Below, piece by piece: positions 1 through 23,525 of a stretch of DNA of 24,424 nucleotides; position 1 is the stretch's first letter; the number at the start of each line of letters is the position of its first letter. The notes beneath the pieces were generated by a model that made no database searches, had not been told where the DNA came from, and was given only the letters and a program-made list of their open reading frames with translations. The translations under genes and the position numbers were made by a program. Source of the DNA: a virus (Duplodnaviria; Caudoviricetes). The stretch covers positions 1 through 24,424 of the IMG/VR virus record IMGVR_UViG_3300050032_000067; one strand, 5' to 3'.

Positions 1-1
1 T

Positions 2-892
2 GATGGAGAACAAACAGCCGAATTGGACCAACATTGCACTTATTTTACTCTAATTCCGGAAATAATTAGAAAATTATCTTATAAAACTATTTCTAAACAA
101 AAAGATATATTATGGAATGAATTAAAAGAATTAGAAAAGTTTATTGTTTCTAATTCTGATATATATGAATCTATAAAATTGGAAATTAATAAAGATATTA
201 CAAGATTAGAAATTAAACAAAATGTAATATCTTGGCTTTGTGATTCTAATTCCGCAATGACCGATACCAAAAAAGAAATTAATAAGTGGTTTTCTAAGAA
301 ATTTCCTAAAACTGAACTATATCTAGATGCATTAAGATCTAAAAATTCATTTCCATATCTTGCATTTGGGATGGAATCTAAAATTTTTCTAGACAATTGT
401 TCAAAATTTCTTATTTCTAAAAATATTCCTGTAATAACTAAGCATGACTGTCTAATTTTTAAAATTTCTGATCTAGAGACTGTTGAAGTAACTTTAAAGC
501 AATCTTTCGAGAAATTCAATGTTTCTTTTAAATGTGGTCTTAAAATTGGAAATCAAGTCGCTACGCTCCAGCCTGCGGCTAACAAATCTTTTTTGATTGA
601 AAATCTGGTCCCTACCAATAAAGAAAATAACCAAGCACTAAAAAAAGAAGAAGAATCACAGGGCAGAGAGCACAGCTCCTATATGGGCGACTTTTTATTG
701 GTAGGGACCACATTATGTAGTGTATATAATTCAAAAACCACAAGATGTTGTATTAATGTTACAGAAAAGACAAAAAGAGGAAAAAAGTATTGGAGATATC
801 AAAAAAAGGGTGGTAGGGACCAGATTGTATTACAAAGTAAAATGTCGAAAGAAGAATTTATAGAAAAAATATTAAAAGGAAAAATAAAATGA
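2..892 (+). CDS. Family-A DNA polymerase / T7-RNAP-fold protein (TV-Pol-like, possible primase-polymerase or replication protein), 5'-truncated
   Basis: Frame is open from base 2 (DGEQTAELDQHCTYFTL), so the gene starts before the window. Motif A-like ELD, motif B-like RLEIK, an MES segment and motif C-like ITKHDCLIF occur in the expected order. The C-terminal ~110 aa overlap the repeat cluster. Confidence 0.6.
   Translation, partial: DGEQTAELDQHCTYFTLIPEIIRKLSYKTISKQKDILWNELKELEKFIVSNSDIYESIKLEINKDITRLEIKQNVISWLCDSNSAMTDTKKEINKWFSKKFPKTELYLDALRSKNSFPYLAFGMESKIFLDNCSKFLISKNIPVITKHDCLIFKISDLETVEVTLKQSFEKFNVSFKCGLKIGNQVATLQPAANKSFLIENLVPTNKENNQALKKEEESQGREHSSYMGDFLLVGTTLCSVYNSKTTRCCINVTEKTKRGKKYWRYQKKGGRDQIVLQSKMSKEEFIEKILKGKIK
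557..581 (-). repeat. Left arm of 25-bp inverted repeat (GNA mini-hairpins on minus strand)
   Basis: Reverse complement TAGCCGCAGGCTGGAGCGTAGCGAC matches 1396-1420 at 24/25. Confidence 0.9.
602..826. repeat. Three copies of TGGTAGGGACCA (iteron-like; one minus, two plus)
   Basis: 606-622 and 694-710 form a perfect 17-bp inverted repeat. 602-617 and 811-826 form a perfect 16-bp inverted repeat. Confidence 0.9.
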
Positions 893-1395
893 TAAATTGG
901 AATGAAATTTTAGAATATGATGAAACAAGTCCGAGTTGTTTGTGGTGGAAAGTTTCTACAAATCCTGCAATAAAGATAGGTAAATTCGCTGGATCTTTAA
1001 AAAAAACTAATTATTATGAAATTGGATATAATAAGAAAAAATATCAATGTCATAGAATAATTTTCGAAATGTTTAATGGAGAAATTCCTGAAGAATTGTT
1101 CATAGATCATATTGATAATAATCGAGAAAATAATAAAATAGAAAACTTACAACTAGCTACTAAATCAGAAAATAATAGAAAATCTTTAATGCAAAAAAAT
1201 AATACTTCTGGTTATAAGGGAGTGACACTGGAAAAAAGAAGAAATATATGGAGAGCAAATATACTAATAAATTTAAAATATATTCATTTAGGATACTTCA
1301 ATGATAAATTAGAAGCCGCTAAAGCTTATGACTCAGCGGCTATAGAATATTTTGGAGAATTTGCTCTTACAAATAAAATGCTTGGATTATTGTAA
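889..1395 (+). CDS. HNH endonuclease with C-terminal AP2 domain (free-standing homing endonuclease type), copy 1
   Basis: HRIIF...IDHIDNNRENNKIENLQL...EN, then NNTSGYKGV...W...HLGYF..KLEAAKAYD. ATGA overlap with the upstream gene. Confidence 0.92.
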   Translation: MINWNEILEYDETSPSCLWWKVSTNPAIKIGKFAGSLKKTNYYEIGYNKKKYQCHRIIFEMFNGEIPEELFIDHIDNNRENNKIENLQLATKSENNRKSLMQKNNTSGYKGVTLEKRRNIWRANILINLKYIHLGYFNDKLEAAKAYDSAAIEYFGEFALTNKMLGLL

Positions 1396-1420
1396 TAGCC
1401 GAAGGCTGGAGCGTAGCGAC
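1396..1420 (+). repeat. Right arm of 25-bp inverted repeat (GNA mini-hairpins on plus strand)
   Basis: TAGCCGAAGGCTGGAGCGTAGCGAC contains GCC-GAA-GGC and GC-GTA-GC, and starts immediately after the HNH stop codon. Confidence 0.9.
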
Positions 1421-1455
1421 GTTTCGAAAACGTTCTTAAAATCTTCTAAAAGTCC

Positions 1456-1484
1456 TTGACAAGCTAGATTAAATTTGCTATAAT
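1456..1484 (+). promoter_or_regulatory. Consensus sigma70-type promoter
   Basis: TTGACA (1456-1461), 17-bp spacer, TATAAT (1479-1484) with extended -10 TG. Confidence 0.85.
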
Positions 1485-1488
1485 GAAG

Positions 1489-1522
1489 AAGTGAGAAAGA
1501 CCTCCAAAAGTTTTTCTCACTT
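1489..1522 (+). other. 5' leader stem-loop
   Basis: AAGTGAGAAAGAC / GTTTTTCTCACTT forms a 13-bp stem (one G-U) with loop CTCCAAAA, at the predicted transcription start. Confidence 0.6.
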
Positions 1523-1523
1523 G

Positions 1524-1570
1524 TAACATAAATAAAAATGAGAGACAAGATCACAAGGAGATCACAAATG
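1524..1570 (+). repeat. Duplicated leader cassette copy 1 (TAAATA + RBS + ATG)
   Basis: TAACATAAATAAAAATGAGAGACAAGATCACAAGGAGATCACAAATG is nearly identical to 2076-2124. Confidence 0.85.
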
Positions 1571-1756
1571 ACTTTTCAACAGCACAGACTAATGTTAAAA
1601 AGAGTAAAATTACAGAACCTAATTAAAGAAAGAATTAAGAAAATTTACAAAAAGGATATTGAAATAAATCTTCCATTAACAGAAATTATTGGAGATATGG
1701 CTGTTCAATGTTATATTGCGGAAACTACTAAAATTAAAAACGGGTTTTACGACTAA
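1568..1756 (+). CDS. Hypothetical basic protein (62 aa)
   Basis: Start moved from 1538 to ATG 1568, which follows AAGGAG. TAATG coupling to the next gene. Confidence 0.7.
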   Translation: MTFQQHRLMLKRVKLQNLIKERIKKIYKKDIEINLPLTEIIGDMAVQCYIAETTKIKNGFYD

Positions 1757-2064
1757 TGAACTTACGTATTAGATGTAAATTTGAAAAGCTATCTCCAAAA
1801 TCCAGAGCATTTATTTGGGGATATGAAGCCAAGCACAACGTTTACTATGTAGAGGTGACAAATACGAGCCACAAAAAACAAAGACCGTTTATAAGGCTTC
1901 CTGAAGCGTTTACGATAGAATTAGTTTTAGGATTTTTCGAAGATTTTCTGGAGGATTTTTGTTTAATTACAGATCAGATTTTAGAAGATTGGTCATTAAC
2001 GGATGTTGGACAAAACCTTCTAGAAAATCTTCGAAAAGAGATAGAAAAATACTCTCCAAATTAA
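1756..2064 (+). CDS. Hypothetical protein (102 aa)
   Basis: ORF translationally coupled to the previous gene; no motif recognised. Confidence 0.7.
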   Translation: MNLRIRCKFEKLSPKSRAFIWGYEAKHNVYYVEVTNTSHKKQRPFIRLPEAFTIELVLGFFEDFLEDFCLITDQILEDWSLTDVGQNLLENLRKEIEKYSPN

Positions 2065-2075
2065 TTTTTAGAGTT

Positions 2076-2124
2076 TAACATAAATAAAAATGAGAGACAA
2101 AGATCAAAGGAGATCACAAAAATG
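2076..2124 (+). repeat. Duplicated leader cassette copy 2 (TAAATA + RBS + ATG)
   Basis: Near-identical to 1524-1570 with small indels. Confidence 0.85.
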
Positions 2125-2370
2125 TTAGAAAAATACACACCAAACGAAACAGGAAATCCGGATAATTTCGTAAAATATCTTAGAGTATGGGCAGATATTT
2201 GTAACAAAATTCAGAAAAAATTTGGAAAAGATATATCAGATACTTTCGAAATTCCTAAAAATGTAGAAAATTTATCTATGTATGATTTATTTCAGAAACA
2301 TTATTTGGAAGAATCTAATAAAATTATAGACAAAAAGATTGCTAAGAAATTTTTGCAGGAGAAGAAATAA
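2122..2370 (+). CDS. Hypothetical protein (82 aa)
   Basis: AAGGAG RBS upstream; no motif recognised. Confidence 0.75.
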   Translation: MLEKYTPNETGNPDNFVKYLRVWADICNKIQKKFGKDISDTFEIPKNVENLSMYDLFQKHYLEESNKIIDKKIAKKFLQEKK

Positions 2371-2371
2371 A

Positions 2372-2539
2372 ATGATATTAGAAATTTTAATAGGATCTTT
2401 AATAGGAACTACAGTTGGACAAATTATTTTTTCGAAAACTTTTTATAGAATTTTATGGAATATTTTTAAGTTTATATATAAAATTTTGAAAGATTTGTTT
2501 ATAACTGGAGTAGAATTTTATGGAGGATTTTTTTCATAA
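2372..2539 (+). CDS. Small hydrophobic/membrane protein (55 aa)
   Basis: ATG 2372 follows AGGAG and the previous stop. MILEILIGSLIGTTVGQIIF is hydrophobic and is followed by an amphipathic stretch. Confidence 0.6.
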   Translation: MILEILIGSLIGTTVGQIIFSKTFYRILWNIFKFIYKILKDLFITGVEFYGGFFS

Positions 2540-3141
2540 TGTCTTCAAATTCACTTCAAAACAGTTATAATGAAATATTTTACGAAGAATTATCATTTTT
2601 AGATGATTATTATACACGACAAATATCAAATAATACTCCTTTCAAACCATATATTAACACATTTGATTTATTAGAAGAAAGAAATGTAGAAATACAATAT
2701 AAATGTTCAACAGTTGATTATATTCAGACAGATGTAACAAAAAAATTAGCAAAGGAAGTTAAAAGATATTTCGAAAGAATCATAAAAACTTTTGAAGAAT
2801 GTAAATTAAATAGTGGAATATGTTTAATGAATATTGGAGATAAATCTTTATATAATATACCAGAAACACTTTTGAAACTAAAATATCCAGAAGAAGCTAA
2901 ATTATCTATTAATAGTCATTATACTAATACAAATATAAATTCTTTTACAGTAGAACATTTCGAAATTAATTTTTATAATTTTTTCGCAAATATTTCGTTT
3001 AGAGATGATTTTCTTGGATTATCCGCTGGCAGTTCTAAAAGTTTTGCGTCATCTCCGGAAACAATTATTAGATTAGCATTTTTTCCTACTTTTTCCATAA
3101 TTCCTTCCGAAAACGAACCGATGAGTGAAATAAATAGATAA
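2539..3141 (+). CDS. Hypothetical protein (200 aa)
   Basis: GGAGG upstream, TAATG coupling; no motif recognised. Confidence 0.75.
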   Translation: MSSNSLQNSYNEIFYEELSFLDDYYTRQISNNTPFKPYINTFDLLEERNVEIQYKCSTVDYIQTDVTKKLAKEVKRYFERIIKTFEECKLNSGICLMNIGDKSLYNIPETLLKLKYPEEAKLSINSHYTNTNINSFTVEHFEINFYNFFANISFRDDFLGLSAGSSKSFASSPETIIRLAFFPTFSIIPSENEPMSEINR

Positions 3142-3176
3142 AAAACTGTAGTTGCGATCTCCTTATAATACAGTTT

Positions 3177-3210
3177 CTCCCAGAGCGTTTTTGGTTCTGG
3201 GAGTTTTTGT
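3177..3210 (+). terminator. Rho-independent terminator
   Basis: CTCCCAGAGC / GTTCTGGGAG 10-bp stem followed by TTTTTGTTT. Confidence 0.8.
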
Positions 3211-3247
3211 TTCTAATAAGATAAATAGTTGTGTAATTGAGGTTATT

Positions 3248-3751
3248 ATGATAAATTGGAATGAAATTTTAGAATATGATGAAACAAGCCCTAGTTGTTT
3301 GCGATGGAAAGAGTTAGGATCTGGTAAAAATAAAGATTTAATAGCCGGAACTTTAAAAAAAACTAATTATTATGACATTGGATATAATAAGAAAATATAT
3401 AAATGTCATAGAATAATTTTTGAAATGTTTAATGGAAAAATTCCGAAAGGTATTTTTATAGATCATATAGATAATAATCGTTCAAATAATAAAATAGAAA
3501 ATCTTCAATTAGTAACTAACACAGAAAATTGTAGAAAATGTTTAATGTCTAAAAATAATACTTCTGGATTTAAAGGAGTTGTTTGGTATAAAAAATATCA
3601 AAATTGGCAGTGTAAAATAAAAGGTAATAAAAAACCTGTTTTCTTAGGATATTTTTCTGATAAAATAGAAGCCGCTAAAGCTTATGACTCAGCGGCTATC
3701 AAGTATTTTGGAGAATTTGCTCTAACTAATAAAATGCTTGGACTATACTAA
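3248..3751 (+). CDS. HNH endonuclease with AP2 domain, copy 2
   Basis: Paralog of 889-1395 (first 41 nt identical). True start is ATG 3248 after GAGG, not 3152. Confidence 0.92.
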   Translation: MINWNEILEYDETSPSCLRWKELGSGKNKDLIAGTLKKTNYYDIGYNKKIYKCHRIIFEMFNGKIPKGIFIDHIDNNRSNNKIENLQLVTNTENCRKCLMSKNNTSGFKGVVWYKKYQNWQCKIKGNKKPVFLGYFSDKIEAAKAYDSAAIKYFGEFALTNKMLGLY

Positions 3752-4221
3752 TTCTTCAATTTTTCGCAAATATCTTTCAAAATTTGATTAGAATTGATAA
3801 AATCCCAATCAATCTTATTTTTTGAGTATCTAGGTATTATAAAAAGATTATCAGAAACGTTTACGAGTGTCTGTAGAGAGGTTTCAAAGAAAAAACGTGC
3901 AGGTATGCGTCTGGAAATTTGAAAGCCTTCTGGTGGTGTTAAAATGCCTCTAGCTTCTTTGTTAATTTTTGCTTCCCAATTTAGAAATCCTTCTGGAAGT
4001 TTTTCTCTAGACTTTTTTAGATATCCTTTTACAACATCTGTTCCTACTTTTTCGTTATGAGCTTTTACAATTTCTTTAACTTTTTCCGGATTTTTATCGT
4101 AACGTTGCTTATTTCTTTTTCGATTACATGCACGACATTCGGAAAAATATCTACAATGGACGTCCAAATAGTATTCGGATAATTCTTTTAGTTCACCACA
4201 TTTAGTGCATTTCTTTTTCAT
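3748..4221 (-). CDS. Zn-ribbon protein with degenerate HNH-like C-terminus
   Basis: KKCTKCGELK...SECRAC zinc finger, a basic helix, then GFQISRRIP...NVSDNL in place of the usual IDHIIP...NL. Confidence 0.65.
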   Translation of the reverse strand: MKKKCTKCGELKELSEYYLDVHCRYFSECRACNRKRNKQRYDKNPEKVKEIVKAHNEKVGTDVVKGYLKKSREKLPEGFLNWEAKINKEARGILTPPEGFQISRRIPARFFFETSLQTLVNVSDNLFIIPRYSKNKIDWDFINSNQILKDICEKLKN

Positions 4222-4223
4222 TT

Positions 4224-4406
4224 TTAATACCTCATTCCTTTTACAATCGATGTTATATCAGTTTTATTATTATCTTTTTCTAAAACTATTTTGAAATTTA
4301 TCTTTTTCAAAATACATTCTTTAGTTAAATTTAATATATCTGACATTTCAGAATCATCAAAATCTATTTCTAATCCAATATTTTTTGCAGCTATAAAAGT
4401 TATCAT
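4224..4406 (-). CDS. Hypothetical protein (60 aa)
   Basis: Tightly packed in the operon, AAGGA RBS. Confidence 0.65.
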   Translation of the reverse strand: MITFIAAKNIGLEIDFDDSEMSDILNLTKECILKKINFKIVLEKDNNKTDITSIVKGMRY

Positions 4407-4407
4407 G

Positions 4408-4599
4408 TTAATTCCTTTTCAAAACTTCTTCTAAAACCTTTTCTGTAATATCTTTTGAAATAACATTTTCTCTAAAAATTTTAATATCAGTATTGCGAGC
4501 GTTATTCAAAATAAATTTTACATCTGCAACAATTTCGGAAAACTCTTCTTCAGGATATGTAGAAATCGTAAAATCGTTATTAGTTTTTATTACTACCAT
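4408..4599 (-). CDS. Hypothetical protein (63 aa)
   Basis: Tightly packed in the operon, AGGA RBS. Confidence 0.65.
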   Translation of the reverse strand: MVVIKTNNDFTISTYPEEEFSEIVADVKFILNNARNTDIKIFRENVISKDITEKVLEEVLKRN

Positions 4600-4754
4600 G
4601 CGAAAATTCCTGGAATAAACATAAAAGAATTATAATGAGTATATCCATAACTTGTTTCTAAATCAATATTTTTTAATTCTACAACACTTTCCGGAATATA
4701 ATTAACAAAGCCATAAAAAGATTCTATTTTAATAATATTTTCATTTTCATTCAT
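4593..4754 (-). CDS. Hypothetical protein (53 aa), not in ORF track
   Basis: MNENENIIKIESFYGFVNYIPESVVELKNIDLETSYGYTHYNSFMFIPGIFAW fills the gap exactly, with an ATGA overlap to the upstream stop. Confidence 0.6.
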   Translation of the reverse strand: MNENENIIKIESFYGFVNYIPESVVELKNIDLETSYGYTHYNSFMFIPGIFAW

Positions 4755-4933
4755 TTTTCATCTTCCAATTTCTTAACAATTCTCGAAAGTCTAGCAATAC
4801 TTTTATCAAGTTTGTTTTCCAATTCGTCAAAACTCTTATCAATTTTTTGAAAACCATTTTCGAAAATATTATTAAGCTCTTCTACATGATTTTCTAACAT
4901 CCTACAAATTTCCTGTTTAGTCTCGTCTTTCAT
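4751..4933 (-). CDS. Small coiled-coil protein (60 aa)
   Basis: ATG 4933 follows AAGGAG; heptad-like Leu/Ile pattern. Confidence 0.7.
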   Translation of the reverse strand: MKDETKQEICRMLENHVEELNNIFENGFQKIDKSFDELENKLDKSIARLSRIVKKLEDEK

Positions 4934-4983
4934 AAAATCTCCTTTATTAAGCTTCATTTTTATTTATGTAAAAGGATAATAAA

Positions 4984-5012
4984 AAATTTCCTGAAGATTT
5001 TAGAGGAAATTT
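4984..5012 (-). terminator. Possible weak terminator
   Basis: AAATTTCCT / AGGAAATTT stem followed by a T run on the minus strand; the stem is AT-rich. Confidence 0.3.
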
Positions 5013-5028
5013 CGAAAGATTTTTAGAA

Positions 5029-5409
5029 TTATTTTCCGTATTTTTTTACTGAAGTATCATCTACAAGAGGTTTATTGATTCTAGGGATTTCTGTATTTGT
5101 TACAACTTGAAGAGTTTTATCTAAAGATTTTGTTGCGGGCGTTCCAGAACCCATCATATAAGCAAATATAAAAATATAAAAAGCTACTTGTCCATATTTC
5201 CAAAGATTCGACGCAGAAAATACTCTTTTTGGTTCAATTTTTTCTTCGATTTTCGCTATTTTTTCGGAGTGTGTGTTCAATTTTGTATTAATTTCTGAAA
5301 TATCATCTGCAATACGATCTTCCATGCGATCAATTCTTTTGTTAAATTGGTCTGTTTGGTCATTTAACATTCCGCGAATAGTATTGATTACATTAAGATC
5401 ATCGGACAT
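5029..5409 (-). CDS. Coiled-coil protein with single TM helix (XhlA/holin-like architecture)
   Basis: N-terminal heptads then VAFYIFIFAYMMG; located downstream of the tail fibre genes. Confidence 0.55.
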   Translation of the reverse strand: MSDDLNVINTIRGMLNDQTDQFNKRIDRMEDRIADDISEINTKLNTHSEKIAKIEEKIEPKRVFSASNLWKYGQVAFYIFIFAYMMGSGTPATKSLDKTLQVVTNTEIPRINKPLVDDTSVKKYGK

Positions 5410-5570
5410 TACTTTTTACTCATTTTCGAAGATTTGAATAGATCTTTTGAAAGATTTTTCGAAATTTCTATGGCCGCTAATTGTTTTTCGGCTTCCTTTT
5501 TTGACATTGGTTTTTTATCGTTTGTATTATGTACTTTGAAACCACCTTTAGGATTCTTTTCTACAGGCAT
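5409..5570 (-). CDS. Small basic phage protein (53 aa), not in ORF track
   Basis: MPVEKNPKGGFKVHNTNDKKPMSKKEAEKQLAAIEISKNLSKDLFKSSKMSKK, with AAGGAG RBS and TAATG coupling to the next gene. Confidence 0.75.
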   Translation of the reverse strand: MPVEKNPKGGFKVHNTNDKKPMSKKEAEKQLAAIEISKNLSKDLFKSSKMSKK

Positions 5571-5620
5571 TTTTAAAAATCTCCTTATATTTTATATTTA
5601 TCGTTTAAAATAAAAATATA

Positions 5621-5812
5621 TTAAGTAGAAGAATCCACAATTAAACCATAACTTGCCAAAGCTGTTAAAAGACTTGTTAAAGCCGCATTCCCACCTTTTG
5701 CGCCTGTTACAGTTGGTTTAGATATCGGAGAAGTTCCGTTAAACCCTATATTACCAGTATGAGAGGTAGTTCCTAAAGTAGTAGTTCCGGAATATTTTTT
5801 TAATGATTTCAA
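5621..5812 (-). pseudogene. Orphaned tail-fibre C-terminal module
   Basis: IGFNGTSPISKPTVTGAKGGNAALTSLLTALASYGLIVDSST resembles a common fibre/spike C-terminal motif. Only a TTG start with poor RBS spacing is available. Confidence 0.55.
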
Positions 5813-5862
5813 TAATCCTTACTATAAATTATTATTTGTTAAATCTACGTTCACGGGGAGCA

Positions 5863-8800
5863 TCAGCGGATCCGTCTCGCGGTCAGTTGACCCGCACATG
5901 CAGCGGAACCAGCGGTAAACGGAACTTGTGCAACCAGATAATAGGTTGTAGTCGATGTAATGCTTACCCTTTGCCTAGGGCATACTATTCCAGTCTCGGT
6001 CGATACAACTGATAAAGCAGGAATAAGGATAACACTTTCTCGGCCATTGTTAGTTATCGTATTGGTTGTCGAAGTTATGTTGGCAACAATTACGCTATTG
6101 CCTACAACTGTTGCTTCATTATAAAAGATTATCAATCCCCCCTCTATATCCCAATCTCCAGCAGTGAGGGACACTGACATAATACTTTTTGCTGTCTCGT
6201 TGACTACCGATACTTGGCTTGCATCCGAGATAACTGTCTCTATGTATTCTCCGACAATTCCAGATGCCGCAGATGAATTATCTGTATACCCTTTTATCGT
6301 AGCTCCCCCATTCGGCGCGGAGATCGCGGTGCCGGTGGCGTTGGATGTGATTGCTCCGGTACTCGATACATACATTAACGCGGATCCACCAGAAACTACC
6401 TCGATGGCATTTCCAGTTCGACCACTCTGTACACCAATCCCAATTCCAGCGTACGAGCCTGAACCTAAATCACTTGTCTGCCCGATCTGTAGTCCATAGT
6501 TTCCAGCACCGTTTGGTGGGTAGTAAGGCACATATAACGACGGGATGCCACCATAGGTTCCTGGTGAATTAGCCGTTATTGTGCCAGACATGCTCGTGGA
6601 CGTGCCTGCCAAAGCCCCCGTAAGCGTGCCCCCCGACAAAGGCAGGTACGGCCCTCCAGTTAATTGTAAATATCTATCATCATATTCATTTATAGTAGTA
6701 ACGTAAGTTATTCCTGTTGGTTCCGTTGATTGATTTCCTAAATTTCCATATGATGCGTTTACACCATCACATGCATCAACCGTTATCCAACAATTTGCTA
6801 TATACACAGGACATTTAGCCCACAATTCCACATTCGACCCATTTGTAACATATCCATAAGTTATTTGGTTTCCACCATATACTGAGCGAACATTAAGATT
6901 TATGGTCGAACGTGTTCCAAAATATACAATATCTTTAGGCGGATAATTTCCACCAAAATTAAATCCGGCGTTAACGGTATATATCAATTGTGCCTGCGAC
7001 GTCCCTACGGCTGTTGGAGTTCCCAAGGTTCCTATTTTATACCAAATTGTCGAATTAGCAGTACTTCCAATTTGAAATCTGTTTTGAACATTTCCATAAA
7101 TTGTATTCAAATTTCCCGTTAAAGTTCCACCAGACAATGGAAGATAAAGATTCGAAAGATTTCCTACATCACTTGCGGAAATACTTCTAGAAACTACTGT
7201 AGAACCATTATTAAAAAGATATCCATTAAATGCTAAAGATAATGGATGCCCGACTAAACCTAAAACAGTCGGAGTTTGTAAATTACCTGTTAAATCTCCT
7301 CCGGCAGATGTTGTTAAAATGTTTAGAGTAGTTGTCCCCGAAACAGTTAAATTTTGAGAAACCGTAGTATTAGCATTTAAGGAAAGTGTTTGTAAGGATG
7401 GTGTAGTATTTCCCTTACCAATAATCAATACTCCGGCATTTTCCGCCGCACTTGACCCGCGATCACTATAAACGGTTCCGAAATTATGAAAAGCATATGC
7501 GTCTATCATTAACGTATTAATAGACTCTGGTTGCCAATTACCGATTCGCGCCCCTATCATAGTATTACCGTAACCGTTTATCATTGTGCTTTGACCTACA
7601 CCAGCGCCAGCTCCAACATAGGTGTTAAAACTACCGGAGACGTTTACAACTCCAGCATTTTCGCCAATAAAAGTATTAACATTACCAACAGCATTTTCGA
7701 AACCAGCAGAATACCCCAAAAAGGTATTATTACTACCAATTGTATTATTTTGTCCGGCACCATTCCCAACAAAAGTATTAAGTCCTAATGTGCTATTGTT
7801 TCGTCCAGCATTTTCGCCAAGAAATAATTCGGAACCTCCAACGGAATTTATAAAATTACTGACTCTTAAAGTTCCGGAAACGTTTAGATTTCCAGGACCA
7901 GATAAATTTCCTCCAGATAAAGGAAGATAATTTAATGAAGCACTTGACGGATAGTAAGGTAGAGCCGGAATATCTCCAGAAGTTAAAGTAGATCCTGAAA
8001 CAACTCTACCAAAAGTATCAGTTTGAACTTTTGTATATATTCCTGAAATTCCTATTGCAGAAAGATTTACTAAAATGTTTCCGGAAGTCGTTATAGGAGT
8101 ATTGGAAATTGTTAATGTGGTAGAAGATACTCCAATAGATGTAACGGTTCCACTTGTTCCGGATGAACTAATACCGGAAGTTATCGCACTAATTGGTAAT
8201 ACAGAACCATTTGCTAATAATATTTGAGCGGAAGTCCCACCAGTTTTTATAAAAGAGTTTGCTTGTATATTAGCATTTGCAACAATACCACCATATGCAC
8301 TAGACATAATTTTAATTATTGAAGAGTTGTTTGCTTGTAAGTCAAATCCCCAATATGCCAAATTCTCATTTAATACAGTAGTATTTGTAACAACATTATT
8401 AGTAAGGGATCCGAAAGCCCAATTAAAATCTATATTAGTTTTTAGATGATCTGAAGTTAAATTTGTTCCAGAAATATTATTAGCATATATGTTAGTTCCG
8501 GAAAGATCTCCTGTTAATATTCCGCCAGAAAGTGGTAAATATGCGGATAAAATACTTAGAGATGGTATTGCAGAAAGTTGTGCATATTTTTTGTCGAATA
8601 AAGTATCGGCAGAAGTTATTCCATACCCAGAAAGAGTTGTAGGAGTTCCGGAAATTTGAGACCATGGTAAAGTCCCGATTGCGGAAATATAAGGAAGAAC
8701 CGGAATATCTCCAGAAGTTAAAGTAGTCCCGGAAACAACACGCCCTTTCGAATCTGTTTGAACTTTAGAATAAATTCCGGAAGTTCCAATTAAAGAAAGT

Positions 8801-8901
8801 GTAGCTGGGCCATACCAAGTTCCGGAACTATAAAGAGCATTGTAATTAACATCTCCAGAAGTTTGAATAGATATTGTAGAAACATTTTGGATTATTTTCA
8901 T
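5863..8901 (-). CDS. Long mosaic tail fibre (1012 aa)
   Basis: Y(S/T)KVQTDxxGRV and PTTLSGYGIT fibre repeats, four YLPLSGG motifs, NTFxGxxAG beta-roll repeats, and a GC-rich C-terminal domain. Confidence 0.85.
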   Translation of the reverse strand: MKIIQNVSTISIQTSGDVNYNALYSSGTWYGPATLSLIGTSGIYSKVQTDSKGRVVSGTTLTSGDIPVLPYISAIGTLPWSQISGTPTTLSGYGITSADTLFDKKYAQLSAIPSLSILSAYLPLSGGILTGDLSGTNIYANNISGTNLTSDHLKTNIDFNWAFGSLTNNVVTNTTVLNENLAYWGFDLQANNSSIIKIMSSAYGGIVANANIQANSFIKTGGTSAQILLANGSVLPISAITSGISSSGTSGTVTSIGVSSTTLTISNTPITTSGNILVNLSAIGISGIYTKVQTDTFGRVVSGSTLTSGDIPALPYYPSSASLNYLPLSGGNLSGPGNLNVSGTLRVSNFINSVGGSELFLGENAGRNNSTLGLNTFVGNGAGQNNTIGSNNTFLGYSAGFENAVGNVNTFIGENAGVVNVSGSFNTYVGAGAGVGQSTMINGYGNTMIGARIGNWQPESINTLMIDAYAFHNFGTVYSDRGSSAAENAGVLIIGKGNTTPSLQTLSLNANTTVSQNLTVSGTTTLNILTTSAGGDLTGNLQTPTVLGLVGHPLSLAFNGYLFNNGSTVVSRSISASDVGNLSNLYLPLSGGTLTGNLNTIYGNVQNRFQIGSTANSTIWYKIGTLGTPTAVGTSQAQLIYTVNAGFNFGGNYPPKDIVYFGTRSTINLNVRSVYGGNQITYGYVTNGSNVELWAKCPVYIANCWITVDACDGVNASYGNLGNQSTEPTGITYVTTINEYDDRYLQLTGGPYLPLSGGTLTGALAGTSTSMSGTITANSPGTYGGIPSLYVPYYPPNGAGNYGLQIGQTSDLGSGSYAGIGIGVQSGRTGNAIEVVSGGSALMYVSSTGAITSNATGTAISAPNGGATIKGYTDNSSAASGIVGEYIETVISDASQVSVVNETAKSIMSVSLTAGDWDIEGGLIIFYNEATVVGNSVIVANITSTTNTITNNGRESVILIPALSVVSTETGIVCPRQRVSITSTTTYYLVAQVPFTAGSAACAGQLTARRIR

Positions 8902-10850
8902 TAGGAAATTGCCGCCTTGAAAACCATAAATTTTATTGCTATAGCTTCTGATAATGACGCATTCGTATTATTTCTAATGAATATTGTTGCTGAACCATTT
9001 GCAGGAGTCACAGCGAATCCATATGCACCTAAAGTTCCGGCAGATGTGTGATTTATATCTACAAAGTCATTTGCACCTATAAACGAATTTGTAAGAACAA
9101 AGTTTACTGTAGTTGCAGAAGCTAATGCGGCACTACTCATAATAATATTTCCGGTAAGTTTATTCAAAGTAACGCCGGTCGCCTTATTAGTTGCTTGAAC
9201 AATTTGACCACCAGAACCAATATTATAACCTATTCCAGAGGAACCATACACAGGACCTAAAAATGTCGCGGTTTTGTTCGCAGAAATTGTTAATAAATCA
9301 TTTGTTCCATAAACTCCAAATGTTATAAAATTATTTGCAGAACCATTTCCTTGATAACAAAAACCAAAGTTCGCAGCATTATTTGTAGCTTCCTGTAAAC
9401 CAAAATCGAAATTAAGTCGATTACCAACAGTGGCGGACATTCCAGTATTCAAAGCAATAATAGGATGTATAAACCCACCAGTAGCAGACATGTTTATTGT
9501 TAATGGAGAATCTACTGTAGATGTTAATGTTTGAGAATTCGCCGAAATATTTGTAGCAGAAATACCAGAAGATGTTATATTCACTATTATATTTTGGGCA
9601 GACGTAGAGTTTACGAAAAAGTTTATCGAGTTTCCAGATGTTGCGGAGTTTCCTATAGATCCAATAGATAAATTGCTTCCTTGTGTATAAATATATCCAT
9701 CATTCGGACCATTTACATACCAATTATTAGCAGATTGAGAATAGTTTGAACCATTTATTCCAAAATCTATATAAAAATTAGTATTATTTCCAATATCAGA
9801 TGTAGCAATAAAATCTGTAGAATTAGAAATACCAGATGATTGATTTTGAGAAATTATTTGAAAATATGAATTAATATACCCGTCCATTTCAATTGGACTG
9901 GTCGGGAAATTCTTAAATGATGCACTAGAAGCAATTACGTTGATATCTTGCGTTACTACAGTACTGAAATTGGCAGAAACTCCTGACACTGCACCAGTTA
10001 ATGTTCCACCGCTTAAAGGAAGATACAAAGAAATGTTGGGAAGGGCCGAAATCTGAGCATATTTGTTATTAAATAAAGCGTCGGCGGAAACTATCCCATA
10101 TCCAGAAAGTGTTGTAGGTGTTCCGGAAATTCTACTCCAAAGTATTGAAGCACTTGTAGCATCATATGGGAGAACCGGAATATCTCCAGAAGTTAAAGTA
10201 GTTCCTGAAATAACTCTTCCATAAGGATCAGAAGAAATCTTTGTATATGTTCCAGATGTTCCAAATAAAGAAAGATTTACGGAAATAGTTCCAGAAGTTG
10301 TAACAGGACTTAATCCAATGCTTAGTGTGGTTGAACTTATTCCAACTGAAGAAACCGAACCGTAGTTTGTAGAAACTGCCGAAAGGTATTTCTTATCAAA
10401 CATAGTATCAGAACTAGTAATACCATATCCGGAAAGTGTTGTAGGTGTTCCGGAAATTCTACTCCAAAGTATTGAAGCACTTGTAGCATCATATGGAAGT
10501 AAAGGAATATCAGCGCTTGTTAAAAATCCTCCTGAAGTTAGTCTACCATAATTATCTGAAACAAATTTAGTAAATGTTCCTGAAGTTCCTATAGTAATCA
10601 ATTCCAAATCTATTGTTCCAGCACTAGTTAAAGGACTTCCAGAAACATTTAGAGTAGTTGACGTAATGTTTATTGCAGATATTCCTGAATTAGTCCAAGC
10701 ATAAGGAAGAGTATTGTAATTATTACTTCCATTACCTATTTTGATATTTCCGGTATCTAATTCAATACAAGGTTCTCCCTGTGATGGAATAGGGTTTACG
10801 GATGCCCAGGTCGCCTTATTACCTCTTCTAAGCTGTATTTGTAATGCCAT
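8901..10850 (-). CDS. Tail fibre with Mtd_N-like N-terminal domain (649 aa)
   Basis: MALQIQLRRG...NPIPSQGEPCIELDTGNIKIGNG...LPY N-terminus, two 109-aa repeats, and C-terminal QATNKATGVTLNK...SLSEAI module. Confidence 0.88.
   Translation of the reverse strand: MALQIQLRRGNKATWASVNPIPSQGEPCIELDTGNIKIGNGSNNYNTLPYAWTNSGISAINITSTTLNVSGSPLTSAGTIDLELITIGTSGTFTKFVSDNYGRLTSGGFLTSADIPLLPYDATSASILWSRISGTPTTLSGYGITSSDTMFDKKYLSAVSTNYGSVSSVGISSTTLSIGLSPVTTSGTISVNLSLFGTSGTYTKISSDPYGRVISGTTLTSGDIPVLPYDATSASILWSRISGTPTTLSGYGIVSADALFNNKYAQISALPNISLYLPLSGGTLTGAVSGVSANFSTVVTQDINVIASSASFKNFPTSPIEMDGYINSYFQIISQNQSSGISNSTDFIATSDIGNNTNFYIDFGINGSNYSQSANNWYVNGPNDGYIYTQGSNLSIGSIGNSATSGNSINFFVNSTSAQNIIVNITSSGISATNISANSQTLTSTVDSPLTINMSATGGFIHPIIALNTGMSATVGNRLNFDFGLQEATNNAANFGFCYQGNGSANNFITFGVYGTNDLLTISANKTATFLGPVYGSSGIGYNIGSGGQIVQATNKATGVTLNKLTGNIIMSSAALASATTVNFVLTNSFIGANDFVDINHTSAGTLGAYGFAVTPANGSATIFIRNNTNASLSEAIAIKFMVFKAAIS
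10096..10496. repeat. Intragenic direct repeat, 74 bp x2 (period 327 bp)
   Basis: 10096-10169 and 10423-10496 differ at one base. Confidence 0.9.
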
Positions 10851-11848
10851 TAGACTGAACCACCATCTATAATTGAAGTGCCGCCATAAATGCTATTAGG
10901 AACTCCACCGTCGATTTGATAAGTTATTGATGTCACAGTTTCTCCATTTACTAATATTTGATAAACTCTATATTCTTCTATATTTAATAAATTGTTAAAA
11001 GACGCATTATTCCATTGAACAGTATTTCCGAAAGTGTTTGCAATAGTTGTATTAACAGTTGCTAATTCATTGAAAGAAAATTCTGAAGCAGTTGTATCAT
11101 CCCAAATTTTAAGCAAACCATTTAATATAACATTTGCAGAAGTTCCGGCAGAAGTTTGAGGAACTATTTCTAAATTTAATTTCCAAGTATAAAGAGTATT
11201 TATTTTACTTGCAAAAAGATTAGTTCCAGCTATTGAAAAGTTTGTTAATAAAGAACTTCCATCTGTTAAATTAAATGTTATAAAATCTGTTAAAGAATTC
11301 CAGGAAATTTGTCCAGAACCTTCTATTTTAATAATGCTGCCAGGAGCTTGATCTGGTATTCCGAAAGGTATTATCCCAGGAACTATATTTGTTAAAGAAG
11401 ATGTTCCTGAAATATTCCAACCAATATTTTGAAAATAGTATGAATTAGCTATTTGAGAAGAATTTGCCGAAATAGGAACCAAAGTAACATTCGTAATATT
11501 TCCAGAAGAATTTACAGTAATAACAGGTATATCCGTAGAATCTCCATAAGTTCCGGCAGATACTCCAGAAGCACTTGTAGAACCATTCGAAATAGGATCT
11601 GCAATAGTTTCGGAAATACCTGACCAAAGAACTAAAGAAAGTGGTAGAGGATTTTGCCGAATTGTTAAAGTTGTTGGATTAGAAAGAAATCTTAATTCTT
11701 CTAAACCAATAGCTTCTAAAGAAATTGGTTGAGTTAAAATAGCTGTATATGTAGGATCCCAAACATCTAAAGAGGAATATAACCATCCATTATCAACCGA
11801 AATTAAATTTGTATTGATACTTTGTATTGTTCCTGGATGTAGTATCAT
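10850..11848 (-). CDS. Tail-associated/adaptor fibre protein
   Basis: Contains GVSAGTYG...IPVITVNSSGNIT and ends in IDGG...YGG...IDGG. ATG 11848 is preferred over GTG 11860 on RBS spacing. Confidence 0.7.
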   Translation of the reverse strand: MILHPGTIQSINTNLISVDNGWLYSSLDVWDPTYTAILTQPISLEAIGLEELRFLSNPTTLTIRQNPLPLSLVLWSGISETIADPISNGSTSASGVSAGTYGDSTDIPVITVNSSGNITNVTLVPISANSSQIANSYYFQNIGWNISGTSSLTNIVPGIIPFGIPDQAPGSIIKIEGSGQISWNSLTDFITFNLTDGSSLLTNFSIAGTNLFASKINTLYTWKLNLEIVPQTSAGTSANVILNGLLKIWDDTTASEFSFNELATVNTTIANTFGNTVQWNNASFNNLLNIEEYRVYQILVNGETVTSITYQIDGGVPNSIYGGTSIIDGGSV

Positions 11849-11850
11849 AA

Positions 11851-13788
11851 TTATACCCACGCTCCTAAAATATTATCCCAAACATATGTCCTACTTGCTC
11901 CGGATGGTAATGTATAATTTCTAAAAATATTTGGCGCTGTTATACTAATATTTCCAGAAGAATTATTAGCAATTGTCATTTGTTGTCCTGTTACTACACC
12001 ATTAGATATACTATTAAGGGTTCCGGAAGTTCCATTCAAATTTACAAAAGTTCCCGGAAAATTTATTTGATATACTCCCGATGTCGCTGATAGTTTTTGA
12101 TATGGTATTACAAGTTGATTTAAAATACTTGTATATCCGGCATTAAGTGTAATTACTGTTCCCTGGACCGTAATTTGTGCTCCCGCGCCGTCAGAAAGTT
12201 GTGCATAATTATTTTGTAAAACGACTTGGGAAGTATATCCGGTAAAAGTAATTCCAGCGGTAGTTGCCGAATTTGTGGTAGTAATTGAAAAAGTGTTTGA
12301 TGTAGTTATAGCTCCGTTGAGATCATCGGTTGCCAAAATCGTATTACCAGTTCCAAAATCCGCGATTCTAAACTTTGAAAGATGATTATCAATACCGAAA
12401 TTAGTAAGCCCAGATGTCCCACCTATACTATTTCCTACTAATTCTATTCTTGGGACTGGACCACCATATATATAAGATCCATTATTTGCAGCAGACATTA
12501 CTCTATCTACAAAGTTTCCAGAATTATCTAATACTTTTAGACAAAATGTTCCAGGAGCATTTATCCCAGTTGTATCAAATCTTAAACCAGCTTCGGAAGT
12601 AATACTTGGACCAGTTCCGTAAACAATTTGGCCAGATGGTTGAGCTAATGCAGAAGTTGATGCAGATGTTAAAAATGCAGAAGTTGATGCAGATGTTAAA
12701 AATGCAGAAGTAACGACAGATGCATGTATAACCTCTCCATTTACACTATCATTAGTAACATTAAAATTTATTCCAAAACCTGGCTGAAGTTTATTCGAAA
12801 GATATCCTGGAATTGTATCATCACCACTTGTAAGAACCATAAAAGGGTTTCCGGGAACACTTGTTACAACTCCTCCAATAGATTCCAAAAGGCCGTCAGA
12901 AAGCTCTAAATTGGTTTTTCCAGTAACTGTTAAATTATTTGAAATAGTTACAGGAACATTCGAAGTTATTTGCTCATTTCCGGGCGAACCATAAAACTGA
13001 AACATTTGATTATATGCAGAGGTTCCAAAACTTAATTGATTTGGATTAGAATTTGAAAGCAACCATTGTGCAGATGAAGGTAGTCCAGTTGCTGCATTTA
13101 TTGTAATAGCTCGCCCTGGAGTAAGATCAAAAGTCACTGGTCCAAAAACCTCTCCACCAGATAAAGGCAAATATTTTCCAGAAAGACTATTTAAAGATAT
13201 TCCTAAAATATTACCAGCACTTGTAAGATTTATATCAGATGTTGCAGAAACTTTTCCGAAAAGATATCCAGGAGTATTGTCCGAACTTGTTACTTTTACA
13301 GTATAAGTGTTTGTAGTCGGGTTTGCCCATTGATAAGCACTTGTAGAACTATTATAATAAAGATAACTAGAGCTTGTAGGAGTAGGAAAATTAGTAGTTC
13401 CAGAAACACTTTGCCAAGTATATGCGGAAGTACTTGAATTATAATAAAGATAACCACTATTAGAAGGACTTCCGAAAGGATTATAACTATTTCCTAAAAT
13501 ACCTTCAATATCGTCTCTTCCAGCTATTTTAACTCCACCATTTTCAATTAATTTATCATACACAGCAAATGTATAAAGTCCCGCGTCGAGAAAATATTGA
13601 GGAGCAAACCCTGCGGAATCTAAAGGAATCGGATTTGGACATGGAGCGGTTTTCGCTAAATCGTAATAAGTTGTTTTTGGGATTTGCGTTTTTGTTTGAA
13701 AAGTGTAAAAAAATCCATTTGAAAGAGGATTTTGATTAGTATTTCGTATTTCTTGGAAAAACCATGGCACTTGAAACCCATTTGACAT
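11851..13788 (-). CDS. Tail fibre/spike with virion-attachment (head-binding-like) N-terminal domain (645 aa)
   Basis: NGFFYTF...PKTTYYD...NPIPLDSAG N-terminus shared with 13863-16766; YLYYNSSTSAY x2, PGYLxxK x2, YLPLSGG. Confidence 0.8.
   Translation of the reverse strand: MSNGFQVPWFFQEIRNTNQNPLSNGFFYTFQTKTQIPKTTYYDLAKTAPCPNPIPLDSAGFAPQYFLDAGLYTFAVYDKLIENGGVKIAGRDDIEGILGNSYNPFGSPSNSGYLYYNSSTSAYTWQSVSGTTNFPTPTSSSYLYYNSSTSAYQWANPTTNTYTVKVTSSDNTPGYLFGKVSATSDINLTSAGNILGISLNSLSGKYLPLSGGEVFGPVTFDLTPGRAITINAATGLPSSAQWLLSNSNPNQLSFGTSAYNQMFQFYGSPGNEQITSNVPVTISNNLTVTGKTNLELSDGLLESIGGVVTSVPGNPFMVLTSGDDTIPGYLSNKLQPGFGINFNVTNDSVNGEVIHASVVTSAFLTSASTSAFLTSASTSALAQPSGQIVYGTGPSITSEAGLRFDTTGINAPGTFCLKVLDNSGNFVDRVMSAANNGSYIYGGPVPRIELVGNSIGGTSGLTNFGIDNHLSKFRIADFGTGNTILATDDLNGAITTSNTFSITTTNSATTAGITFTGYTSQVVLQNNYAQLSDGAGAQITVQGTVITLNAGYTSILNQLVIPYQKLSATSGVYQINFPGTFVNLNGTSGTLNSISNGVVTGQQMTIANNSSGNISITAPNIFRNYTLPSGASRTYVWDNILGAWV
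12647..12711. repeat. 27-bp tandem repeat, 2.4 copies
   Basis: AATGCAGAAGTTGATGCAGATGTTAAA, encoding (T)SAFLTSAS units. Confidence 0.9.
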
Positions 13789-13862
13789 TTATAATATTCC
13801 TCTTAAACGATTCATTATATATTTATCTTTTTGAAAATATTTTTTGAAAAGTTTTCTTAAAA

Positions 13863-16766: not shown

Positions 16767-16853
16767 TTATAATATTTCCTTTTGCAGATTTCTATTATAT
16801 TTAGAGTTTTTGAAAATATTTCTTGAAAATCTTCCTAAAGTCGAAGAAAGTCC

Positions 16854-16882
16854 TTGACCAGAGAGATTAAATTTGTTATAAT
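16854..16882 (+). promoter_or_regulatory. Sigma70-type promoter, near-copy of 1456-1484
   Basis: TTGACC, 17-bp spacer, TG-n-TATAAT; 32/36 identical to 1449-1484. Confidence 0.8.
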
Positions 16883-16915
16883 ATAAATAGTCAGGTAACG
16901 AGAAAGGAGATTACA

Positions 16916-17080
16916 ATGTTTTCTATTATATATTTTATCCCTATAGCAATGGCAGCAATTTGGAGTTTATTCGATGAGGACGGGGGACAAGTATATAAAT
17001 CAAAAAAAATAGAATATAAAATAGATGAATGGATAAAAGACATGGAAGAAATTGAAGAAAAAAGAAACCGCCGTATATAG
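16916..17080 (+). CDS. Small single-pass membrane protein (54 aa), moron-like, not in ORF track
   Basis: AAAGGAG RBS; MFSIIYFIPIAMAAIWSLF hydrophobic N-terminus then a charged tail; has its own promoter. Confidence 0.75.
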   Translation: MFSIIYFIPIAMAAIWSLFDEDGGQVYKSKKIEYKIDEWIKDMEEIEEKRNRRI

Positions 17081-17103
17081 CAAACATTTACAATAGATGA
17101 TAT

Positions 17104-18084
17104 TTAAAAATTATATTTTCTTAAATAATCTGCTCCAATTCCGGAAAATAAAGGAGCTATTTTTGAAAGTGTAGGAGCCACAATTGGAGCGCTTTTTGAA
17201 AGAGCATATGGAATAGCTTTCGGAAATACATAATCTGTTCCCAACGCTGCTAAAGTTAATGGTAATACGGATGGAAAATGTGAATGTAACATTCCTGCGC
17301 CAATTGTTTCTAATATTTTTGTTTGTGTACCTCCTAAAGGACTTGTAATAGGATTAGGTTTAGAAATATTAATATAATCTGTTGCCAATGCATCTGGATT
17401 AGCTCTAAGTCTCGGGATATCAACACCCATACTGTTATACATACTTAAAACATCTGGACTATAATTTAATGTAGCTTCTTTAACTGTTTTTCCTTCTAAA
17501 ATTTTAGGTGCTTGTTCCGATGCTGCTAGTTGGTTTAAAAAATTACCTCCCTTATCTCCAGCTTCTTCTAATTTTTGTCCGGCAATATGTCCAATACCAC
17601 TTGCTAAAGCTCCTAATCCACCTTGTAATAAACCTCCAGATAAAGTCGGAGAATTTGTATTACCTAAATATCCACCAACTTGTCCTAATCCCTGATATAA
17701 AGCAGCTTTTAATGGAGATAATTCTGGCTGAGCTAATGAAATAATATTAGCAGGATCGGCAGCAGCATTTTCGAGAGTTCCATTCGTATTAGCATTATTT
17801 TGAAATTCATCTAGTTCTTGTGTAGCCCCTTTTGCAAAACCATCTCCACCCAAAAATGAACTGACTCCTCCAATTAAACCAGCAATCCCAGATTCAGGAT
17901 ATGCAACAGCCTTTCGGAGAAGTGGATATACATTTGAAATATTAAATTTATTAAGATCGTCGGTAGTTTTTAATCCTTGAATATTTTGCGGTGAATTATT
18001 ATTAATAGTATTTCCATTATCATCGAGAAGAACTGGTGAATTATTATTAATAGTATTTCCATTATCATCGAGAAGAATTGCCAT
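17104..18084 (-). CDS. Putative third ejection/DNA-transfer protein (326 aa)
   Basis: ATG 18084 overlaps the upstream stop (TAATG). Gly/Ala/Leu-rich helices; position after two ejection genes. Confidence 0.6.
   Translation of the reverse strand: MAILLDDNGNTINNNSPVLLDDNGNTINNNSPQNIQGLKTTDDLNKFNISNVYPLLRKAVAYPESGIAGLIGGVSSFLGGDGFAKGATQELDEFQNNANTNGTLENAAADPANIISLAQPELSPLKAALYQGLGQVGGYLGNTNSPTLSGGLLQGGLGALASGIGHIAGQKLEEAGDKGGNFLNQLAASEQAPKILEGKTVKEATLNYSPDVLSMYNSMGVDIPRLRANPDALATDYINISKPNPITSPLGGTQTKILETIGAGMLHSHFPSVLPLTLAALGTDYVFPKAIPYALSKSAPIVAPTLSKIAPLFSGIGADYLRKYNF
17990..18077. repeat. Tandem duplication, 43 bp exact, period 45
   Basis: Encodes LLDDNGNTINNNSP twice at the N-terminus. Confidence 0.92.
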
Positions 18085-20848: not shown

Positions 20849-20908
20849 TTATTATACCTCTATTCTATTTATAAATTTTAGAAAACTTTTACAAAAACTA
20901 TACATAAT

Positions 20909-23489: not shown

Positions 23490-23525
23490 AGTAATTCCTT
23501 AAAAATTTAGAATCATTTATATTTA

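Follow-up and report, generated by a model that had tools for sequence, protein, structure and literature searches.

Organization of the interval between the inverted repeats

The locus considered here is the interval 557-1420 of a window that comprises a complete IMG/VR virus record (IMGVR_UViG_3300050032_000067; 24,424 bases, approximately 40% complete). The interval is bounded by two GC-rich inverted-repeat arms and is composite, in that an orphan early gene ends in a repeat region and is followed by an inserted freestanding endonuclease gene. A second record (G001; 35,002 bases, 94% complete) matches window positions 1-3000 at 100% identity, and both records represent one genome of approximately 35 kb, circularly permuted relative to each other: window 1-6342 corresponds to G001 27312-33653 reverse-complemented, and window 7120-23550 to G001 546-16975. 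Matches to PHROGs are those of a small tailed phage, including terminase, portal, scaffold, major head, head closure, ejection protein and tail fibres. Nearly all genes are oriented on the minus strand, and the interval is located within the sole plus-strand module, approximately 4.4 kb in length, which contains an open reading frame (ORF) of 518 amino acids together with two HNH genes and several small ORFs.

The left arm (GTCGCTACGCTCCAGCCTGCGGCTA) occupies positions 557-581 and the right arm (TAGCCGAAGGCTGGAGCGTAGCGAC) positions 1396-1420, with a spacing of 814 nt. A GC-rich inverted repeat in AT-rich DNA had been proposed here in the first-pass annotation and was confirmed: 24 of the 25 positions are complementary, and the GC content is 68% in the left arm and 64% in the right, compared with 25-32% in the flanking 500-nt windows. 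A composition-weighted score, with palindromes left out and one mismatch permitted, reached 48.3 bits against 28.2 ± 2.0 (maximum 34.5) for shuffles of the window, none of the 100 shuffles attaining the real value. By a cruder exact-match score the 18-nt core obtained 40.7 bits versus 30.1 ± 4.1, which is 2.6 standard deviations above the shuffles, one of which scored higher at 49.2. Both arms share the layout AGCC-NNN-GGCT, GGA, GC-GTA-GC. Direct reading bears out the earlier description of two GNA-loop palindromes per arm with a variable loop base as the sole mismatch, namely the base at the centre of the first loop. In the left arm, which is translated in frame as VATLQPAA, AGCC-TGC-GGCT is located at 570-580 and GC-TAC-GC at 560-566, while the right arm carries AGCC-GAA-GGCT at 1397-1407 and GC-GTA-GC at 1411-1417. 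GNA-type loops are found on the top strand of the right arm (GAA and GTA) and on the bottom strand of the left arm (GCA and GTA). Across the 35 kb genome, GCGNAGC and GCCGNAGGC occur in the arms only, the shuffle means being 3.2 and 0.11, respectively. The 25-mer itself is present in exactly two copies, and the genome-wide scatter that had been named as a refuting observation was not seen.

To the right, a perfect mini-hairpin (ACGTTT-CGA-AAACGT, 1419-1433), read from the sequence, abuts the right arm and has no counterpart at the left arm. It is followed at 1456-1484 on the plus strand (sequence L011, 5455-5483) by a consensus sigma-70-type promoter, TTGACA-17 nt-TATAAT, with 12/12 matches, which serves the downstream small ORFs and marks the right boundary of the element. 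The arrangement was also examined in assembled contigs from eight runs, a form of read evidence in which rare variants are dropped and gaps in cover carry no evidence. The left arm was bridged in 4/8 runs (X14, X18, X12 and X9) and the right arm in 3/8 (X14, X12 and X9), and the bridging contigs displayed the window arrangement every time, with 0 differences. Contigs from RNA (X19 and X20) span only 1680-1868 and 2158-2341, outside the element.

The left arm lies in the ORF at 2-892 on the plus strand, which is the 3' part of the orphan early gene; the full ORF (P0002) encodes 518 amino acids and is located at L011 3335-4891. Two regions can be distinguished within it, a conserved body extending to approximately 556 and a non-conserved tail at 557-892. 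Among 5.8 billion protein clusters, the only relatives are fragments of the same protein, a diverged fragment (P0006) and P0003 (Logan), the sole homologue, with 506 amino acids and 37% identity. The BLASTP alignment to P0003 covers residues 17-396 and weak similarity persists to approximately residue 406, while residue 408 corresponds to window position 557, the first codon of the left arm. Beyond the start of the left arm the two proteins have unrelated tails of approximately 100 amino acids each. Look-alikes of the body in the ESM Atlas belong to clusters without names, from viruses and Bacteroidota, and the tail had no usable match there. The frame at 557-892 is open for 112 codons and is the best of the six frames but weak (0.06-0.11, compared with 0.26-0.37 for the body). 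Four of the eight codons in the left arm are rare (GTC, ACG, CTC and GCG; relative synonymous frequency 0.04-0.09), and GC content at third codon positions is 0.625 in the arm versus 0.14 upstream. These rare GC-rich codons, together with the start of the arm at the end of homology, imply constraint on the left arm at the nucleic-acid level, which points to arms that are constrained as nucleic acid and not as protein.

The last part of the tail, a C-terminal module of approximately 69 amino acids at 683-892 on the plus strand, exists as a separate 68-amino-acid ORF in the variant P0006 (ENA), with 87-89% amino-acid identity. An AF2 model of the module predicts four strands and a helix (pLDDT 65.7). 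Searched against the PDB, the model yielded no match at E ≤ 0.001; at E 0.7, the best-scoring entry was TnsE, through its C-terminal domain, which binds DNA. Derivation of the tail from an HNH-AP2 protein was considered and rejected (hhalign probability 0.3%). Regarding the full protein, the PolA fold assigned in the first-pass annotation found no support. Pfam searched at E up to 10 returned nothing above cut-off, DUF6364 alone appearing below its own cut-off. No PHROG was assigned, and no PDB sequence matched at E up to 10. A relation to PolA or T7 RNA polymerase was rejected by hhalign with a two-sequence profile (0.2% against T7 RNA polymerase and 0.2% against T7 DNA polymerase). The AF2 model of the full protein (pLDDT 39.5) was unusable for structure search, and the resemblance to polymerase motifs that can be picked out by eye (IDG..E.D.H; R...K..V.SWLC; KHDC) is not significant.

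Within the tail, three repeat units of 16-21 nt with the dyad core TGGT-AGGG-ACCA are clustered at 602-826. Copy 1 is inverted (602-622, minus strand; core TGGTCCCTACCA at 606-617). Copy 2 (694-714, plus strand; core TGGTAGGGACCA at 699-710) pairs with copy 1 at 20/21 positions, and copy 3 (811-826, plus strand; core TGGTAGGGACCA at 811-822) is complementary to copy 1 at 16/16. The hairpin at 596-720 formed by copies 1 and 2 has z = -4.76 on either strand. TGGT-N4-ACCA occurs genome-wide at the three tail sites only, 0.54 being expected, and TGGTAGG(G)ACC occurs four times versus 0.03 expected, three times in the tail and once in the leader of the same gene. This fourth copy (TGGTAGGACC, L011 3280-3289), the centre of which is one base shorter, falls in the 5' leader between a TTGACA-17-TAAACT promoter (L011 3163-3191) and the ATG, which it precedes by 46-55 nt. 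The leader at L011 3225-3340 folds at -43.6 kcal/mol (z = -6.45) with the motif at the tip of a hairpin. By eye, the pairs CTTCACT/AGTGAAG and ATAGTTGGT/ACCAACTAT in the leader could make a pseudoknot. The repeats had earlier been described as central and iteron-like; they are not central to the interval, and in being dispersed, with one copy inverted, they are unlike tandem iterons.

The remainder of the interval is occupied by the cassette of a freestanding HNH-AP2 homing endonuclease, at approximately 876-1395 on the plus strand. Its ORF (889-1395) matches Pfam HNH_3 at 8.2e-20 and AP2 at 4.2e-08, both above cut-offs, and phrog_99 at 5.8e-65. The ATG overlaps the upstream stop codon (ATGA), and the ORF has its own AAGGA ribosome-binding site. 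The genome contains two paralogues with 80% and 72% DNA identity. Similarity among the three copies comprises the ORF and approximately 13 nt upstream, including the AAGGA, and ends at the stop codon; the borders of the cassette were drawn from these limits. The cassette provides the last codons of the upstream ORF and the stop/start overlap, makes up 60% of the inter-arm interval, and is followed by the right arm at the very next base after the HNH stop codon. Both paralogues are freestanding, and the right arm is absent after each of them. The junction 1395/1396 was bridged in the window form in 3/8 runs (X14, X12 and X9), while the 5' border was not securely bridged, the contigs stopping at 918. 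The cassette was probably inserted later, beside the right arm, and the arms would have been approximately 307 bp apart before its insertion. The first-pass annotation had placed both arms inside one gene, which holds for the left arm in ORF 2-892 but not for the right arm, which follows the endonuclease gene; neither the cassette, nor the TGGT-AGGG-ACCA identity of the repeats, nor the fourth copy in the leader was part of that account. In the titles and abstract openings covered by a literature search, an HNH gene flanked by inverted repeats in this arrangement is not described.

The load of endonuclease genes is unusually heavy for 35 kb, with three HNH-AP2 paralogues and two HNH or endonuclease VII-like ORFs (window 889-1395, 3152-3751 and 3748-4221; L011 1328-1852 and 1855-2451). 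A 10-bp stem, AGCCGCT...AGCGGCT, occurs at 1313-1340 and 3669-3696 in the AP2-coding part of two of the HNH paralogues. It was picked by a terminator scan on the minus strand and is probably a by-product of the conserved coding sequence for EAAKAYDSAA.

The repeat region as a candidate replication origin

The interpretation placed first, and held tentatively, is that the repeat region functions as a replication origin or initiator-binding region that was later invaded by the endonuclease gene. The observations that argue for it include the uniqueness of the arms, their score beyond chance, the gene-specific motif, the position of the left arm at the end of homology, the nearness of the cumulative GC-skew minimum, and the sharp borders of the HNH cassette, which ends at an arm. 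Moreover, iteron replicons subject to autoregulation likewise have one motif in both the repeat cluster and the control region of the gene itself. Polymerase, primase, helicase, initiator, integrase and invertase families were absent among the proteins searched with Pfam and PHROGs (7 + 11 + 24 + 23 protein entries, some ORFs being entered more than once). Since no recognisable polymerase, primase, helicase or other initiator is encoded in the genome, the 518-amino-acid gene is the only replication candidate.

A mechanism can be proposed on this basis. The gene product, or its C-terminal module, would bind the dyad motifs both at the origin and in its own leader. Local unwinding would then allow the GC-rich arms to extrude as small hairpins on opposite strands, where they may act as start or boundary signals, with synthesis directed from each toward the other. 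Homing endonucleases tend to settle beside conserved sites, and the endonuclease gene would have homed beside the right arm because the sequence of that arm is conserved among related phages.

Other observations weigh against the origin. The cumulative GC-skew minimum, 0.9-1.9 kb leftward of the left arm, coincides with the divergent promoter region; the skew changes sign with the gene strand and hence provides no independent evidence. DnaA boxes are absent within 8.5 kb; the window contains 11 matches versus 9.1 expected, none of them before 8542. The region is transcribed and probably translated, and roles at the RNA level fit equally well; furthermore, the leader RNA hairpin that carries a motif copy buries the ribosome-binding site, the GAGG and ATG region being paired. 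Nearest-neighbour DNA folding rates the arms no better than shuffles (z approximately 0), a value that neither supports nor refutes special stability because the model has no special term for GNA loops. The premise of a polymerase fold failed every test run on it, and no replication function for the gene product was obtained from Pfam, PHROGs, PDB sequences, hhalign against the T7 polymerases or AF2. The repeats are 93 and 112 bp apart, in mixed orientation, and a 507-bp gene now separates them from the right arm. In the diverged variant P0006, the core codon of copy 3 is changed from R to S, so that the dyad centre of this copy is not strictly kept, while its half-sites may be. Taken with the points in its favour, the origin is neither shown nor refuted and is regarded as plausible. 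A bolder version is rather improbable: that a new kind of phage origin is represented, with dyad initiator sites placed between two opposed start signals of the GNA mini-hairpin type, all within the gene of a 518-amino-acid orphan replication protein that has no relation to known polymerases, primases or initiators. The hairpin signal GGCTGGAGCG-N-AGCGAC would then be a portable module, shared with palindromic repeats of bacteria and intergenic hairpins of phages.

Among known systems of similar layout, the oriV of RSF1010 offers a precedent for paired inverted start signals. RSF1010 primes at two near-identical 40-nt hairpin signals that are inverted on complementary strands beside iterons (PMC8567376), and the phage interval likewise has two such signals beside repeats. 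Mini-hairpins are present at the start sites of G4, ssiA and N4 (PMC13037366). The mini-hairpin of RSF1010 ssiA is CCGAAGG and that of the phage arm is GCCGAAGGC, a likeness in motif (PMC8567376, PMC13037366). The differences are considerable. The phage arms are 25 nt in length instead of 40 nt, the phage repeats are dispersed with one inverted and not tandem direct iterons, the region is inside coding sequence, and searches of the phage proteins with Pfam and PHROGs revealed neither a RepB'-type primase nor a RepA helicase nor RepC. The iterons of IncQ plasmids are reportedly 20 bp in length and present in 3.5 tandem copies.

Origins located within the initiator gene, in which the replication protein has its binding-site repeats inside its own coding frame, are represented by lambda O and SPP1 gene 38. 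The phage locus is similar in that the repeats are in a poorly conserved segment of the frame of the candidate replication gene itself. It differs in that the protein has no homology to Phage_rep_O or another initiator family in Pfam, in the much wider spacing of its repeats, and in the additional GC-rich inverted repeats that flank them. A further, weak lead is provided by the ssoA type of single-strand origin in rolling-circle plasmids: the right arm contains TAGCGA (1414-1419), equal to the CS-6 hexamer of PMC6395029, but the phage hexamer is in a stem and not in a terminal loop. As a signal, the CS-6 hexamer was rejected, since it is not enriched in the genome (5 occurrences versus 11.2 expected).

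If the repeat region is an origin, it would constitute a compact and experimentally tractable replicon, composed of one orphan protein and a cis region of approximately 360 bp; the phages of this low-GC peat lineage are uncultured and have no recognisable replication genes. Priming by hairpin signals, as in IncQ plasmids, G4-type phages and N4, would be extended to a tailed double-stranded DNA phage. Whichever reading holds, the 518-amino-acid protein family is uncharacterised and merits a solved structure.

The arm motif in other genomes and alternative explanations

Exact scans located the 17-base core of the arms in unrelated contexts, including hairpin elements of unrelated bacteria and phages. 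A viral scan with 16 specified bases returned 44 loci, by estimate roughly the number that chance would give. Many matches are in GC-rich or coding DNA and fit chance. Three contexts appear non-random, and none of them has an Rfam family. The first is a family in a Pyrinomonadaceae metagenome-assembled genome (MAG), with 9 matches at ≤2 mismatches versus 1 in the reversed control, two other genomes having no excess; its motif, GG(T/C)TGGAGCG-N-AGCGAC, is in a hairpin loop and N varies. The second is a hairpin with the arm motif between two genes on a contig of 37% GC. The third is a conserved structured element of approximately 115 nt in four low-GC viral contigs, where it separates the major capsid gene from the ORF that comes after it. 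The motif elsewhere may represent a portable stable-hairpin module or convergence.

Two of these contexts can be described further. The repeat in the Pyrinomonadaceae MAG and in soil metagenomes (L043 (G002:C53), L049, L051-L053, L031 and L036) is a palindrome of approximately 230 bp, with an outer inverted repeat ACGCCGAAGGCGTTCGCTAA and inner hairpin loops that contain GAGCG-N-AGCGAC. The element downstream of the capsid gene (L059 1180-1300, L063, L088 and L094, minus strand) carries GGCTGGAGCGCAGCGAC in its loop and ends in GGAGG; in two of the four contigs a DUF3800-XI RNA is located approximately 1 kb away.

The alternative ranked second to the origin, a possible one, is an element that acts at the RNA level. 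The arms would pair as a 25-bp stem in the early transcript, and either copy 2 or copy 3 would be the partner of copy 1; together with the leader hairpin, these pairings would control translation, stability or processing of the message for the orphan-gene tail and the endonuclease. Arms and repeats are indeed on one transcribed strand between the promoters at L011 3163-3191 and window 1456-1484. The strong fold of the leader, with its ribosome-binding region buried and the motif at its tip, is consistent with such a role, as are the two mutually exclusive partners of copy 1 and the recurrence of the arm core in the conserved, RNA-like intergenic hairpin 3' of the capsid gene in four low-GC viral contigs. 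Long-range processing stems flanking rRNAs provide a known precedent. The stalks cleaved by RNase III in rRNA and the sites in T7 early mRNA resemble the phage arrangement in that a duplex of approximately 25 bp formed from distant repeats brackets a segment; the phage stem, in contrast, would be cut within an open reading frame, and its cleavage is putative. Such cleavage would deprive the upstream ORF of its stop codon, and closure of an 814-nt loop is kinetically unfavourable. Furthermore, all pairings are Watson-Crick with two mismatches, G·A and C·C, and display no G-U signature; the z-scores are equal on both strands, giving neither strand preference nor discrimination between RNA and DNA; and no Rfam family was matched.

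A more doubtful explanation is that the interval is the remnant of a mobile palindromic element, similar to a REPIN or a miniature inverted-repeat transposable element (MITE), which would have entered the 3' end of the gene without disrupting the frame and whose arms would be terminal inverted repeats without function for the phage. The 25-bp arms begin exactly where homology to P0003 ends, the interior contains nested inverted repeats, and the length is divisible by 3 both with the HNH gene (864 nt) and without it (357 nt). On deletion of 557-1420 a short frame stays open to a stop at 1457-1459. Moreover, mobile endonuclease genes have colonised the genome heavily, and the arm core GGCTGGAGCGTAGCGAC matches the multi-copy palindromic family of approximately 230 bp in the Pyrinomonadaceae MAG, in which it is also paired inverted. 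Like the locus, REPIN and MITE elements have GC-rich hairpin modules that occur as inverted pairs, separated by a few hundred bp, and the match to the hairpin-loop motif of the MAG extends to 18-20/20 nt, but it may reflect convergence on the stable hairpin GCGNAGC, and many of the outside matches are in GC-rich coding DNA and fit chance. The phage element is, however, present in single copy and has a protein-coding interior, whose product includes a module that the variant retains with 87-89% amino-acid identity. No target-site duplication is present, the flanks (aatcaa and gtttcg) being unrelated, and the proteins searched include neither a transposase nor a recombinase. A second element with both arms did not appear in exact-pattern scans: 42/44 viral loci have one copy of the arm, and the other two (L082 and L083) overlap on the contig of this phage, which carries the sole inverted pair among the scanned loci. 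The repeat motif is, in addition, present in the leader, outside the putative element.

The phrog_99 HNH-AP2 genes explain part of the interval. ORF 889-1395 is a clear member of the group by its domains, paralogues and sharp borders, but only 876-1395 is accounted for in this way, the arms and dyad repeats being outside the cassette and missing from its paralogues. If the region is an RNA switch or a domesticated palindromic element and not an origin, it would show homing endonuclease genes settling beside conserved cis sites.

Two further explanations are unlikely. Recombination between the arms could flip 582-1395 and so switch the C-terminus of the orphan protein, in keeping with 25-bp inverted repeats that flank a segment of approximately 0.8 kb at the 3' end of a gene and with the short alternative C-terminus of the flipped form; this is very improbable, as no invertase, integrase or recombinase was found among the proteins searched and no strand-changing or deletion joint was observed in the contigs of eight runs, in which rare variants could be missed. 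Least probable is a self-splicing group I intron that carries the HNH gene and is followed by a second exon of 12 codons after 1420. An HNH homing endonuclease inside GC-rich structured sequence within a gene would suit it, as would a length divisible by 3 and a frame that stays open for a short distance beyond 1420. However, Rfam gave no match to a group I or II intron on either strand (E up to 10 on 520-920 and up to 1 on 1-6000), and group I introns are not known to have their ends joined by a 25-bp stem. In addition, the paralogues of the HNH gene stand free, no more than 36 nt separate 1420 from a consensus promoter, and no spliced joint appeared in any contig, RNA cover of the region being nil. 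The 12-codon frame has no similarity to the tail of P0003. In summary of rank, the origin is followed by the RNA stem or operator, then by the domesticated palindromic element, and finally by the intron and invertible segment; the remaining probability belongs to an element without function.

Source of the phage and minor features

Sequence of the phage is present in 20 of the 21 listed runs, from 17 studies, all labelled peat metagenome except X20 (bioreactor metagenome). Searched with blastn, the 'phages' collection gave no match. Queries of IMG/VR with the ORF, the alignment, the terminase and P0006 returned this phage only, and protein queries of the JGI metagenomes and GTDB genomes returned nothing. 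No tRNA or tmRNA was found.

A number of minor features were recorded elsewhere in the genome. The tail-fibre ORF at 5863-8901 contains a variable block at 6342-7120; the two assemblies of the phage are 99.8% identical on both sides of it but diverge within, where only pieces of 88% identity align. An AT-rich inverted repeat of 26 nt (1934-1959 / 2012-2037; 88%, with a 52-nt loop) is located inside the ORF at 1756-2064 and was the source of a chance Rfam match to a microRNA. Finally, a box, (C)ATAAATAAAAATG(A/T)GAGACAA(A), is found upstream of three early ORFs, at window 1502-1568 and 2054-2120 and at L011 approximately 3222-3245. The similarity of the two window copies extends to 67 nt at 76% identity, which possibly reflects a common leader or regulatory signal.

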